A stretch of DNA of 64,000 nt, taken from the NCBI GenBank assembly GCA_964199315.1, contig OZ116699.1:13516001-13580000 (forward strand), written 5' to 3'. Below the pieces are notes generated by a model. It ran no database searches. It was not told the origin of the DNA and worked only from the letters and a program-made list of their open reading frames with translations. Shown piece by piece: positions 3,001 through 9,000 of this stretch; position 1 is the first letter of the stretch, and each line of letters begins with the position of its first letter. The DNA is from Orbicella franksi. Lineage: Eukaryota. The translations under genes and the position numbers were made by a program.

Positions 3001-6000
3001 CAAGTCTCGCATCCATACAACAGGACAGCAATGATGTTTGACTTGAAGATCCTCATCTTAGATTCTCGGCGGAATTCACCTGTTCTCCACACCTTTGAAA
3101 GTCGATGAAAAACACTTCTAGCTTTACCTAACCTACTCCGAATGTCCTGTTCGGCACCACCCAAGTTGTTAACAGTGGCCCCTAGATAGACAAAGCTGTC
3201 TGTATCCTCTACATCAGTGCCATTTATCTTTATAGGATCTTGTCTCCTAGCATTGAGTCTGAGCATCTTTGTTTTGTTGACGTTTATCTTCAAACCCGTA
3301 CCTTCACTGTTGCTCCCCAGTCTTTCTAACTTCATTTGTGCTTGCGTCCATGTGCTGGAAATGAGCGCAATGTCATCGGCATAGTCTAGGTCTTCAAGCT
3401 GTCTCATCATCTTCCATTGAATCCCTGTATTACCTTGCTCTGTAGTCCTACACATAATCCAATCTATTATCAGCAGGAAGAGAAACCCTGACATTACACA
3501 ACCTTTTTTTACTCCTGATTTCACGGTAAACCAATCCGATTTGCCTGCTCCATCGATCACTGCACACTTGGTGTTACTGTAAAACAATTTGACAATTCTT
3601 ATGAATTTTGATGGTATTCCATAAGACTGCATTATCCTCCTCAGTGTTTCACGGTGGACACTATCAAATGCTTTCTCGTAATCTACAAAACAGGTATACA
3701 GACTTGCATTCCATTCCAGCGATTGTTCGATGACATTTCGCACCACAAAGATGTGTTCAGTCGTGCTTCGCCCAGTTCTGAAACCTGCCTGTTCTTCCCT
3801 AGCATCCCATCCACTGCATCATGCAGTCTAGTAATAATTACTCTTCCCATAACTTTCGCTGGTACTGATAACAACGTTATTCCACGCCAGTTGCCACAGT
3901 CAGTAAGGTTCCCCTTCTTGGGAAGCTTAACAATCAGACCACAATTCCAGTCCTCCGGGATTTCCTCTGTCTCCCACACCGTGCGGAATAGGTCTTCTAG
4001 CAGGCACGCAGTTGTCTCTATGTCAGCCTTCAGTAGCTCTGTTGTGATTGAATCCATTCCAGCTGCTTTGCCATTCTTCATGTTCTTCAGAGCCTGCTTT
4101 ATTTCCTGTTAGGTGATACATTCGTCGCTGACATCTATTCCGTTTTGCTGCCTATTGTCAACAACTGCGGGGGCTACTGGATCAGGCCGGTTCAGGACAT
4201 TGTCAAAATGTTCTTGCCATCTATGTCTGATCTCTCCTTCTGTTGTTAATAGCTTTCCATCCTGGTCTTTCACCATGTTCATTCTTTGTGGCCGGTCGTT
4301 GCATAACATCTTCGTTACCTCATACACCTCTTTTAGGTTGCTTCTTTGCAGCCTCCTCGGCTTCTCTGGCAAGCGCATTTGCCCACTCCCTCTTGTCTGC
4401 TCTCAAGCTTCTCTTTACTTCCTTGTTTTTCTCACTGTATTCTATTCTCCTTCTTTCTCTTATCCTTTCTGATCTTGTCTCTTCCATCTTCTTCTTCAAT
4501 TTCCTTCTTTCGTCAATTTTTCTCCAACTTGTTGCACTTATCCAAGTCTTGCTCTTCCTTTGTCTATGACCAAGAACTGACTTTGCCGTTTCGCAGTAGG
4601 CCTTCTTGATGTTCGACCATTTCTCTTCGACGCTTTTGGCATTCTGGGTGTCATCATTTCCTGTTTCATCAGACTCAGTTTCTGTCAAGCAGCTAAATCT
4701 GTTCTTAAGCTCTAAGACAAACCTTTGTTTAATCTCAGGCACCTTTAGCTTGCTCAGCTCATATTTCCGTGCAGTTGTTTCGCCTTGCTTTGTAACCACC
4801 CCACTTAGCTTCAATCGAATATTTCCAACAACCAGGTTGTGATCACTTCCAACGTCGGCTCCCCTGAAAGCCCTGGCGTCCTGTACCGATCTCTTAAATA
4901 TTCCATTAACAGCTATGTGGTCGATTTGATTCCTTGTTCTTCCATCTGGAGAGGTCCAGGTGTACTTATGGATGTCTTTGTGGGGGAACATGGTCGTTAT
5001 AATGGCCATGTTGTTGGCCGCACAGAACTCTATGAACCTTTCACCATTATCAGATCTGTCGCTTCCTAAACCATGCTTACCAACCACTCCGTTTTCGCCC
5101 TCCATTTGGTGCCCTAACTTTGCATTCCAGTCGCCCATAGTTACTATGATGTCATGTCAAGGTGTCCTGTCATACACCTGTTGCAGTAGTTCATAGAACC
5201 TGTCTTTTTCATTGGTGTCAGCATCATTGGTCGGTGCATAGACTTGAATAATGATTGTTTTTATGTGCTTGGATTTGAATCTGGCTGTTATTATTCTGTC
5301 GCTCACAGGGTTCCAGCTCTCCAGAGCCCTAGATGCCTCCTTGCTCATCATAATGGCCACACCACTTTGGTGTTGGTTATCGTTTCTGCCAGCAAATATT
5401 ATATTCACTCCTGTTTGTGTCCCAACCTGCCCAGACCCTGTCCATCGACACTCGCTGATCCCTAGGATCTCCACCTTGTACTTTGCCATCTCTCTACAAA
5501 CCTGAGTAGTCTTTCTGGTGCTGTACATGGTATGCACGTTCCAACATCCCACTCTCATTGTCTTCTTAGGGTGAGTCAACGCCCTTATCCGCATGCAAGT
5601 TTCCTTTCGGCTTTCACCTGCATTCCTCATACTGCTGTCCATCAGGATGACGGAGTCATCTCCCGTAAGATAGCAGGCCGCTGATCTCGCTCCTTGGTAG
5701 TTATTGGTACACTCAAAAGAGTGGCCTTGACATCAATTTCCGGTTTCCGTAATCACCTTGCTTTTACGGGATGGGGTGATTGGCCCCATGCCCAACCCCC
5801 AACCTGGAGGACCAGGGATTTTCTGTCGGGGTGTCCTTCCCCTAGCCACGGGTACCAGATATTTAAAGGCGCTGGAAACTTGCCTTTCGCCACTGTCACT
5901 CAGCTACATCGTATTACCAGGGTCACCAAATGTGGAGGTGTGACATATGACTTGCTGGCAGAGCCTTTTTGAGACGGTAGGCGTTTCTCGGCACTTACGA

Positions 6001-9000
6001 GAGCTACCTAGTGGCAACAGTAGCTCTCACCGGGACCTTTTACCAGCCTTTGACCCTTTGACTATACTGTCCTTTAAATGTGCTTTATTGTCACTACAGG
6101 TGCCGGTGGTGATAGTTATTCAATGGGGCTTGACAACCAAATGCCTGTTGGAAAGATTGGAGCTAAGAAACAGAGACGACTTGAAATGAAAGAGGAAAAG
6201 AAACTTCTAAGAGAGGTATGAAATAACAGTCAGTGACTGGACATTGTCAAACCAAGTTTGTGAAATTGTCTATCAGTGACTAATTAAAATTTCAAATCAT
6301 GCCAGGTTCTTTGGTTTGTTTTGCTTTAATAGCCTTGCTAGATTAATGCAATTGCTAAACAATGTGAAAAGAACAATCTGCTTTTGAAAATCATCCTGTA
6401 ATGCATTGCTAAGGATACTTATTTCTTCATGTTTGCCCGTGGATTGAGTCATCAAATTATTTCTGTATGTAAACTACCGGTACATATCAATTATTAAATA
6501 ACCCATTGATGCCTGTGCCGGCTGTAACTGGCTGTGACAAACATTGGCCTTTGTTCCACCTCTGACATCATCTCCTTTGACCAAAATTGGCATTATCTAT
6601 ACTCAAGTTCTGCAGTCCTGAGGAAAAGACCTTTCCAATGATAACCAGATCAGGGTGATCAATTCAATGGAGCCTGAACCATGCATGAAAATGCTCAGAA
6701 ATTTGAGGGAAAAACTTGGAGCAAAATTTTCTTTGGGTACACTTGGCTTCTCCATGGTAAGAATTGCCCATCTCAATGATGCTTTCATAGGAATTTTTCA
6801 ACTGGAAGCAAGCTATCATTGCACAGCAAAAAGATAAGAGAAGGAGAAAAAGCAAAAGCAAAAAAAGAAAAGCCTAAAGATGTAGATCTTTTTTTTGAAA
6901 AATGTCTTAAAACAAGATGCCAGTGTAAAGAAAGGCATGCTGTCATGTTGCAAATGCCTTTTCAAGTATATTGCAGCTAATTTGGCTCATATCCAGGCTG
7001 AAAACATTCAAAATGTCTCAAAAATGCATTTTTGGCAAAAAGCTCCGGAAGTCAATGGGTTAAGGGCTCATTAACCAATTTATGCACGCGCTCATGCGCG
7101 TTGCTAAGGAGGTGAAATTTCACCTCCAGTTACTTGTGTCAGCCTGAGCGCGGAAAATAAAAACAACTCAATAACTTCCAAATTCGCTTACATTTTAGAT
7201 ATTTTTCTTTGTGTTTCACAAAGTGCAAAGTAAAAAAAGTACAAGCAAAGACAAAATAAGAAAAAGACAGAAAAACAAGAGCAACAGAAAGAGAAAAACT
7301 AACTCCTCGTGGCTTTGTTTGATCTTACCGAGGTGCGCTGGTAGTGTAAATTGCGCACGTGCTGATAGGGTTTTTTCCAATGTATATTGGGCGCATTTCC
7401 GGTTTCTTTAAATGCTAAACGAAACGCGGTTTTTCATTAAATCCAGCCTTTTTCAACAGATTTCAGTTAAAGCCAACGTTGGAAAGATAGCTATGCGTTC
7501 CTTTTTCAAAATCCTGCTTTTTTCAGAAAATTACAAATTTTTTAATATTTTGAAATTCTCTCAAAATTTGACCTTTTAAAAATGAAACAAAATCTATGCA
7601 TAGCGTAATAAGGATTTAAATTAAAATATTAAATCAATGAAAAAAATCCCGATAAAGTAATTTGCCTGGGAGCCTTTGCGTTTTTTCAGTATTAGTCACA
7701 TGACTATGGGCGTGGCCTGATGACGTCATCACTAGTGTTACTGATCATGAAAAAGTTAAAACACATGAAATAACTCTGAACTAACTAAAAATGATGAGGT
7801 TATATGAGAATAAATTTTCCTTAGCAACGGCTCAAAAAGATCGGTTAATGGGCCCTTAATGTCCAACCAAATTGGTGATAAATGACTGTATGTCTGGCCA
7901 AAAATAGAGATTTGTTGTAAGGACACGTCCTGCGTACAACTCACGGCTCTTTTTAGTAATAGAGTGAAAGGAGGGTTGGTGGAAAACTGGTGAAAAAGAA
8001 AGTATTTTTGACAAAAAATAGAATATGAGTAGAGGTAGTATATTTCAAAGTTATAACTCTCTGACACTTTAACAAGACCTTCACTGAAAAAAAGATTTTT
8101 AGTAACTGTTATCCTCTTTTTTAAGCAAATGGAGGCTGAAAGAGAAGACCGAAAGCAACGTGAAGCCTTAAGAGAAGAAGAAAGAAAGAGGCTTGAAGAG
8201 AGAAGACGGATCGAGCAAGAAAAACTGGTTTGTACATTTGCGTTATTATATGCCTCACATATAGTGTACTCCTTTATTTGAATGCTCATTCAAATCATAT
8301 TAGTTTCCAAAGGACTATCACCAGCATGCCGTATACAGAAATCAAAAATGATAATGATGCAGCCTTTCGAACACTTGTTTCACACTGACATAACAGATTT
8401 TGTTTCTTTAACTATTTCCAGGAAGAGCAAGAACGCAAAAGGAAGGAAGAGCAAGAGCGAAAGGAACATGAGGAATATCTTTTGTTAAAAGAACAATTTA
8501 CAGTGGAAGAAGAAGGTGTTGGTGAGACTGCCGAGGAAGTAAGTGACTGTACCATGCTAATTGTCAGGGAAACATGTCAACATGTCAGATGACATGTTGT
8601 TTGTCCTGGTTGTCAGTAATGAAATGAAAGCTAAGTTATTTTTGCTGTCTTGTCAGTGAGGCTGAGCAAATTTAGTCTTGTTTTCAATACAGTTTGTGTA
8701 AAAATTAATGTGTGGGAGAGGGAGGGGAGCATGAGCAAGTGCTGGATGGCACCTATCAGCCAAGGGTAATGCTATCATGTATCATATATCTTAGTTTAAA
8801 CTGGGCATGCCACATCACTTAGACGAGAGACACCTCTAAGTACAAGTCAAATGCAAACTGTCTAAGAACTTGGGGTTAAAAACACTAAATCTGCTATAAA
8901 AATTTGAAGGCATTAAAAGGTGCAAATTTCATGCAGCTTCAGTTCCTTGAAATGCATTGATAATTATTTTCTTCTTGTCTCTTTCAGTCTGAGGCTCTTC

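Follow-up and report, generated by a model that had tools for sequence, protein, structure and literature searches.

Self-cleaving ribozymes resembling that of hepatitis delta virus (HDV) have been reported at the 5' ends of RTE retrotransposons (Ruminski et al. 2011 and Webb et al. 2009, as cited in the available text of PMC6765202, PMC3774820 and PMC5786205). In such RTE ribozymes, as in drz-Agam-2-1 (available text of PMC4908430), a nested double pseudoknot with a P1 helix of 6 or 7 bp sits at the first base of a long interspersed nuclear element (LINE); drz-Agam-2-1 also carries a large structured J1/2 (P1.2) and an extended P2. Here we describe a 64,000-nucleotide stretch of the coral Orbicella franksi (contig OZ116699.1, positions 13,516,001 to 13,580,000; hereafter the window), in which a 3,461-bp RTE-type LINE, a dead copy, lies on the minus strand at 6056-2596 with an HDV-like fold at its head (6057-5894). 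The coral fold shares the features just named. It departs from drz-Agam-2-1 in its J1/2, a 106-nt three-way junction whose apical loop is predicted to pair outside the ribozyme, and in its L3 loop, which is 9-10 nt long in two lineages. By contrast, the peripheral ends of P1 and P2 in drz-Agam-2-1 make no tertiary contacts, and the available text describes no kissing loop for it.

Three further groups of elements are comparable. The 5' ribozymes of R2 elements (available text of PMC3774820) likewise have a long J1/2, a G-to-A change in L3 of dead copies and variable, non-templated 5' junctions, but R2 is site-specific and uses a restriction-like endonuclease, whereas the coral element is dispersed, is flanked by target-site duplications (TSDs) and encodes its P1 entirely itself. 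Twister ribozymes are found at RTE 5' ends in the T-variants of Perere-3 (PMC8501958) and, according to a remark in PMC7761336, in the RTE superfamily. There, too, the first bases form a self-cleaving motif beside the TSD, and the coral genome itself contains twister-headed RTEs (L390, L391 and L394); in their available text the two papers describe neither a scaffold common to HDV and twister nor a J1/2-like domain behind the twister. Ceph-domain and bipartite RTEs (PMC5786205) resemble the coral elements in having a conserved module in the middle of the 5' untranslated region (UTR; 5810-5762 in the window) and copies that have lost internal sequence but retain both ends. There the domain is defined by sequence, and the available text leaves an upstream pseudoknot and a kissing hairpin unmentioned. 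Our literature searches brought up no report of a J1/2 kissing loop or of a scaffold common to HDV- and twister-headed RTEs, and the available text of PMC11662667 offers nothing relevant, although Ruminski et al. 2011, Webb et al. 2009 or the supplements could already draw the contact or a cnidarian example.

With reasonable confidence, we propose that a decayed HDV-like double pseudoknot marks the first base of this LINE family, that it likely self-cleaves, and that a predicted kissing interaction locks it into a 5'-UTR scaffold whose ribozyme looks exchangeable. Ribozyme-headed RTEs are already known, and in that respect the family is of an ordinary kind; the kissing scaffold and the apparent swap seem to be new. 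What goes beyond the fold proposed in a first-pass annotation of this DNA is an extension of P2, a pseudoknot farther downstream, the kissing interaction and a relative headed by a twister-like motif.

HDV-like fold and 5' boundary of the family

Every named element of the HDV fold lies on the minus strand where the first-pass annotation had placed it, in the order of a nested double pseudoknot (Table 1), and the structured J1/2 claimed there indeed contains both the closing helix and a hairpin (6028-6020/6007-5999). A purpose-built HDV descriptor matches exactly once in the window, counting both strands; 60 shuffled 64-kb windows gave 17 matches (0.28 per window) and 3000 shuffles of the 400-nt region gave one. 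Because a single descriptor match is weak by itself, the case is built on the position at the element's 5' end and on covariation among relatives. A chance match of a loose descriptor, conceivable at this background, is already refuted by the covariation across lineages and by the exact coincidence with the element's 5' end, and we give it practically no weight.

One DNA search for relatives yielded 32 matches and two more searches added further lineages, leading to an alignment of 34 copies. From the majority consensuses of lineages A-D, with the L3 and P1 registers set by hand, we scanned all column pairs without bias for helices present in every one of the four lineages. The fold covaries: P1, P2 and P3 each carry two Watson-Crick compensations. 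Overall, five helices of at least 5 bp have at least two Watson-Crick compensations (null mean 0.19), a number that none of 150 column shuffles reaches. J4/2 reads GCUGA, with the catalytic C, in 34/34 copies, and the GG of P1.1 is present in 28/34, the window copy included; it is near-invariant and hence offers no covariation. Most copies retain G25, U20 and G+1. In family A, whose copies are near-identical and to which the 9-nt L3 belongs, the sixth L3 position (the G25 equivalent) is G in 11/13 copies and +1 is G in nine of the ten copies that reach it, forming a G.U pair. L3 measures 10 nt in family B, and lineages C, D and E have the canonical length of 7 nt; 7-8 nt is usual for HDV-like ribozymes. 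Judged across these copies, the 9-nt L3 is a family trait and not decay.

The family's 5' boundary lies at +1. We examined the junctions of 24 rows, of which 14 are independent insertions with both ends, the rest lacking a 3' end in the fetched stretch; TSDs were read by eye, an automatic search having been dropped for mis-assigning several rows, the window's among them. The TSD abuts +1 in six of the 14 insertions (L123, L130, L132, L136, L137 and L187) and stands 1 nt off in two and 2-4 nt off in three (including the window); two have long fillers and one is slightly truncated. The 5' ends cluster at +1, with 8/14 TSDs no more than 1 nt away, and upstream of +1 none of the 14 insertions shows family homology. 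Together, the compensations in P1, P2 and P3, the invariant catalytic C and the TSDs at +1 bear out membership in a coral RTE family with a 5' HDV-like fold, and these sequence comparisons support an HDV-like ribozyme fold at the 5' end of a coral RTE-type LINE.

Some junctions and copies are unusual. At the 5' junctions of L118, L119, L121 and L122, at least 10 extra Gs stand between TSD and +1, the first three being a single insertion copied three times. L122, L125, L132, L134, L135 and L187 are bipartite, non-autonomous elements: flanked by TSDs and internally deleted, they have the 5' scaffold joined to the 3' tip; that these copies keep the 5' block and 3' tip is consistent with a cis-acting role. 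L095, L096 and L097 share a deletion of P2-P3-L3 and keep J1/2 and both kissing loops; because two of them have the same flank, they may be duplications of one decayed insertion. A pairing between the 5' and 3' ends of the element was rejected, since 31-49 of 200 shuffles were as good in the four copies scored, two family-B copies being unscored. In the same genome, a loose J4/2-P2 pattern hit mostly unrelated repeats. Scans of viral contigs gave 0 matches, and matches from a scan of prokaryote genomes were chance bacterial ones and were not used.

The window copy itself departs from its family at the first base. The first-pass annotation had put the cleavage site 3 nt inside the TSD-defined end, and a stretch at 6060-6057 does lie between; the TSD is only 5 bp, however, and the A at +1 is not family sequence, because 6060-6057 is junction filler and family homology begins at 6056. 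The filler makes most sense within an 8-nt tandem duplication in which 6062-6055 repeats 6054-6047. In this copy +1 forms an A-U pair, which HDV-like ribozymes may tolerate. That this copy may be impaired, as had been suspected, holds up, although the length of L3 is not the reason: the G25 equivalent at 5931 has changed from G to A, breaking the U20.G25 reverse wobble that is kept at the family level, and the original +1 is replaced. Together with the broken open reading frame (ORF) and the antisense position in a host intron, these changes suggest that the copy is likely crippled, the more so as the L3 change hits a position whose mutation damages other ribozymes. In the available text of PMC3774820, the same G-to-A change leaves no detectable cleavage in a wasp R2 ribozyme, HDV itself not being fully stopped, and a change of the G25 type markedly impairs a nematode ribozyme (available text of PMC13635239). 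One contig (X1) spans the junction with G at the equivalent of 5931; it is possibly a chimeric assembly and was not counted.

Several results count against active cutting. Rfam gave no HDV- or CPEB3-family match on the window region or on four relatives, which the long J1/2 may explain. The L3 of 9-10 nt in A and B and the 3-bp P4 in A mean that even intact copies may cut slowly. Transcription from an internal promoter, yielding capped RNA, would also account for the clustering of 5' ends and the extra Gs. Coverage by RNA reads, checked on the window and on a family-B copy, is scant and shows no pile-up of 5' ends, at a depth too low to map such ends. These points could be taken together to mean that the fold is conserved without cleaving, or while barely cleaving, as a protective or protein-binding 5' knot, with 5' ends set by an internal RNA polymerase II promoter; the atypical L3 lengths, the extra Gs at some junctions and the absence of any RNA sign of a cut would suit it. 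Against it stand the catalytic C in 34/34 copies, the mostly retained G25, U20 and G+1, the 7-nt L3 of C, D and E, and a relative that lacks the HDV core and has another ribozyme motif at its 5' end (see below). We regard a non-cleaving knot as very improbable.

A predicted larger 5'-UTR scaffold

The same scan recovered helices beyond the ribozyme core: the P2 extension (5951-5947/5893-5889), the arm helices of J1/2, a kissing helix and further downstream helices near 5794-5767. Expressed as counts over related copies, which are not probabilities, 91.3% of cells in J1/2 are paired, with both-sided change in 11/28 pairs, and 97.6% in the extended P2, with both-sided change in 6/10 pairs. Single-strand folding z-scores for J1/2 are mixed (-2.2, -3.3, -1.1 and -0.7), and the small downstream hairpins are no more stable than shuffles.

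The predicted kissing helix consists of 5 bp between 6015-6011, in the apical loop of J1/2, and 5849-5845, so that both strands lie in hairpin loops. Over the 34 copies, pairing at two of its positions reaches 97.7% and 93.9%, and both sides have changed in 8 and 3 cases, respectively. The loops vary in concert between lineages, as GCCAC/GUGGC in A and D, GUCAC/GUGAC in B and GCCAU/AUGGC in C, and in a 4x4 cross-lineage matrix only same-lineage combinations are fully Watson-Crick; this matrix is all that we kept of a regex census of the kissing strands, which was discarded because of mis-parsed rows and 22 unparsed ones. Farther downstream, the two helices of a predicted H-type pseudoknot are 90.1% and 85.9% paired with one both-sided change each, weaker support than for the core. 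Beyond it lies a module common to RTE families with different heads, which is probably the conserved RTE/Ceph domain of PMC5786205, as far as the available text of that paper defines it.

Putative twister-headed relatives and the protein tree

Scanning metagenomes for the conserved downstream motif gave at least 101 loci, 80 of them usable. Two of the 80 match the HDV descriptor and a third, L214, is a lineage-E copy. L173, L217, L234 and L237 form a separate family. The first three match the downstream pseudoknot and kissing hairpin (E=3e-8 to 3e-7, about 3e-8 for L173 and L217), and L237 is too short upstream to score. At the start of L173 lies a sub-threshold match to twister-P1 (Rfam RF03160), and L217 is a TSD-flanked copy truncated within the twister.

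The J1/2 domain of these twister-headed RTEs is homologous to that of the coral family. A covariance model built from the coral J1/2 domains alone and run on the 80 loci, with E-values that are rough, puts L173 (E=4e-5) and L217 (E=0.0016) immediately behind three coral-type loci, the next locus scoring E=1.7. Neither L173 nor L217 has an HDV core. Rather, the J1/2-like domain and a two-A linker are followed by a 5-bp/bulge/6-bp hairpin with the geometry of the coral's extended P2; its closing loop of 5 nt stands in the place of the coral P3-L3-P1'-P4-J4/2. In L217, the loops GCCGA (791-787) and UCGGC (661-657) add two more compensatory changes to the kissing helix; in the MAFFT alignment, the upstream loop is shifted by one column relative to its coral counterpart. 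A run of Gs followed by UCAA occupies the place of the coral P1 5' strand in L217, and from this we infer that loss of the HDV core after gain of a twister is favoured, with the reservation that twister 3' ends are also G-rich. These arrangements point to ribozyme exchange within a conserved 5' UTR.

Protein phylogeny fits this picture. The tree was made from endonuclease-region pieces, several of them decayed (32 of 67 rows with matches kept, 22 rows chosen). Within it, the coral elements and their allies fall into one clade (100/100), separate from the group to which L234 belongs, a 5'-truncated element about 27% identical to the coral query and tied to L173 and L217 by its UTR. Twister-direct and other head types are interspersed among the HDV-headed rows, and monophyly of the seven HDV-headed rows is rejected (approximately unbiased test, p=0.0015, LG+G4; the test was run after a first tree had been seen). 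The tree would fit repeated replacement or exchange of 5' UTRs, and does not give its direction.

The kissing helix and the swap both have results to their disadvantage. Among the column shuffles, 17% give at least one qualifying helix somewhere, which weakens the kissing helix taken alone. Both lineage-E copies (L080 and L214) break the kiss, each in a different strand, and L173, L187 and L097 have one kissing mismatch each. In lineages B and C, the loop could alternatively pair with the 3' strand of the P2 extension. For the swap, the evidence comes from two twister copies, the one complete and the other partial, that were located by way of the common downstream motif, and the twister match in L173 (E=9e-5) scores 37.2 bits against a gathering threshold of 67.2, with the core matched and P1 unpaired. 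One could therefore hold that this is an ordinary ribozyme of the drz-Agam-2 type, in which J1/2 and the extended P2, both known rate enhancers when large and structured, merely assist catalysis, the loop complementarity is chance, and the likeness of L173 and L217 is convergence or a functionless leftover. The 17% null and the broken kiss in lineage E agree with it, as does a sequence-only nhmmer search in which the J1/2 domain reached L173 with just E=0.36. Yet the covariance-model matches fall at the expected colinear place, complementarity in L217 is maintained through two more double changes, and the J1/2 domain is kept where there is no HDV core to assist. We consider this simpler account improbable.

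On a wider view, we put at about even odds that a ribozyme-independent scaffold of three-way junction, kissing loop and pseudoknots carries out cap-free translation or ribonucleoprotein assembly, with the cutter a replaceable plug-in: one lineage would have gained a twister upstream, deletion would have left just a 5-nt loop on the former P2 in place of its HDV core, and whole 5' UTRs would move between RTE protein lineages.

Other heads occur beside the common motif. The coral RTEs L390, L391 and L394 fuse a twister-like core directly to the conserved downstream module (near 1470-1560). L389 and L396-L406, a near-identical repeat family mostly on small contigs or near contig ends, carry a twister-like motif near 1460-1540 with no long ORF behind it. 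L145 and L147 of the same genome and about 56 of the 80 metagenome loci have a different, highly conserved 5' module of about 170 nt upstream of the common motif; it gave no Rfam match in the four loci tested and is a candidate unrecognised structured RNA or ribozyme. L146 and L161 represent a further coral RTE family, whose module about 270 nt upstream of position 1500 shows, by eye, an HDV-like helix order with a G.U-started P1-like pairing, P3- and P2-like helices and a loop that does not start with UCC. In L168, a 5'-UTR piece near 558-621 is inverted beside the conserved motif.

Insertion site, proposed function and meaning

The window family has the anatomy of an RTE, that is, a single ORF with AP (apurinic/apyrimidinic) endonuclease and reverse transcriptase, a short 3' end and a TSD; the RTE-clade label draws on this anatomy, on the conserved UTR module and on a likeness to Perere-3. 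Two further full-length copies are about 95.6% identical to the window element, and the relative L130 has an open frame of 1078 amino acids. The endonuclease pieces of the window ORF had no Pfam match at 1e-3, their motifs being recognised by eye. A weak Rfam Zeta-pan match at 5596-5649 was dismissed as it overlaps coding sequence.

Table 1. Coordinates of the ribozyme-like fold, the 5'-UTR scaffold, the element and its host gene in the window.
Feature	Positions	Strand	Basis
P1, 5' strand (6 bp); predicted cleavage 5' of 6057; A-U start in this copy, G.U in the family	6052..6057	-	
P1, 3' strand (5924-5919), and GG of P1.1 (5918-5917)	5917..5924	-	
P2, 5' strand (5945-5940), and P2 extension (5951-5947), bulged A	5940..5951	-	
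P2, 3' strand (5899-5894), and P2-extension 3' strand (5893-5889)	5889..5899	-	
P3 (5939-5937/5927-5925) and L3 (5936-5928, 9 nt; 5931, the G25 equivalent, is A here)	5925..5939	-	
Short P4 (3-bp stem) and J4/2 GCUGA (5904-5900); catalytic C equivalent at 5903	5900..5916	-	
J1/2, 106 nt, three-way junction	5946..6051	-	pairing across copies
J1/2 closing helix P1.2	6047-6041/5960-5954	-	
J1/2 long arm	6038-6035/5982-5979, 6034-6029/5992-5987, 6028-6021/6006-5999	-	
J1/2 apical loop; small hairpin	6017-6011; near 5975-5963	-	
Kissing strand GCCAC in J1/2 apical loop	6011..6015	-	cross-lineage matrix
Small hairpin; loop GUGGC (5849-5845) is predicted kissing partner of 6015-6011	5840..5852	-	
Predicted H-type pseudoknot: hairpin 5887-5881/5871-5865, loop 5875-5872 with 5858-5855	5855..5887	-	
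Conserved RTE 5'-UTR module	5762..5810	-	
Broken single ORF (stops, frameshifts): endonuclease-like N-terminus and reverse transcriptase	2598..5630	-	RVT_1 E=3.5e-23
TSD, 5' copy, 5 bp, ATAGT	6061..6065	-	
TSD, 3' copy, directly beyond family 3' end at 2596	2591..2595	-	family 3' end set by other copies
Junction filler CAAA in place of family G+1	6057..6060	-	
Host-gene intron containing the element antisense	228..6099	+	spliced reads
Next host exon	6100..6215	+	spliced reads joining exon ending at 227

The loose ends of spliced reads match 198-227 at 29 of 30 letters. In X22 and X23, most first mates map to the minus strand, which for the usual stranded library indicates a plus-strand host gene. 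The element therefore lies antisense in the intron, and host transcription here does not produce the ribozyme strand. The 3' splice site lies 40 nt from its 5' end; the neighbouring exons show good expression, and splicing joins them across the element.

For an intact copy, we envisage that host transcription running into the element would yield a read-through RNA, in which acid catalysis by the equivalent of C5903, with Mg2+ near the G25.U20 pair, would cut 5' of G+1. The cut would free the element RNA from the read-through, so that the 5'-OH end of the template would coincide with the element end. As has been shown for drz-Agam-2-1, the structured J1/2 and extended P2 would probably pinch P1 and P2 together and speed the cut. 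The uncapped product would start with a compact knot, formed by the J1/2 apex kissing hairpin 5852-5840 and by the downstream pseudoknots, which may draw the roughly 300 nt before the AUG at 5630 together into a compact substitute for a cap. Such a knot might shield the 5' end and help in translation or in binding the protein of the element. Because the scaffold is kept without an HDV core in L173 and L217, it likely performs some function besides catalysis.

HDV-like ribozymes are said to act in addition as elements resembling internal ribosome entry sites or as protective elements (available text of PMC6765202). The families described here offer a natural experiment that separates cutting from such other proposed roles: a relative with the peripheral scaffold and a swapped core makes it testable which part drives translation or protein binding. 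The arrangement also bears on the design of RTE UTRs for RNA-based gene insertion (available text of PMC13708176). If our reading is true, the J1/2 domain of an HDV-like ribozyme would make a long-range tertiary contact, and these RTEs would provide a snapshot of one ribozyme class replacing another.

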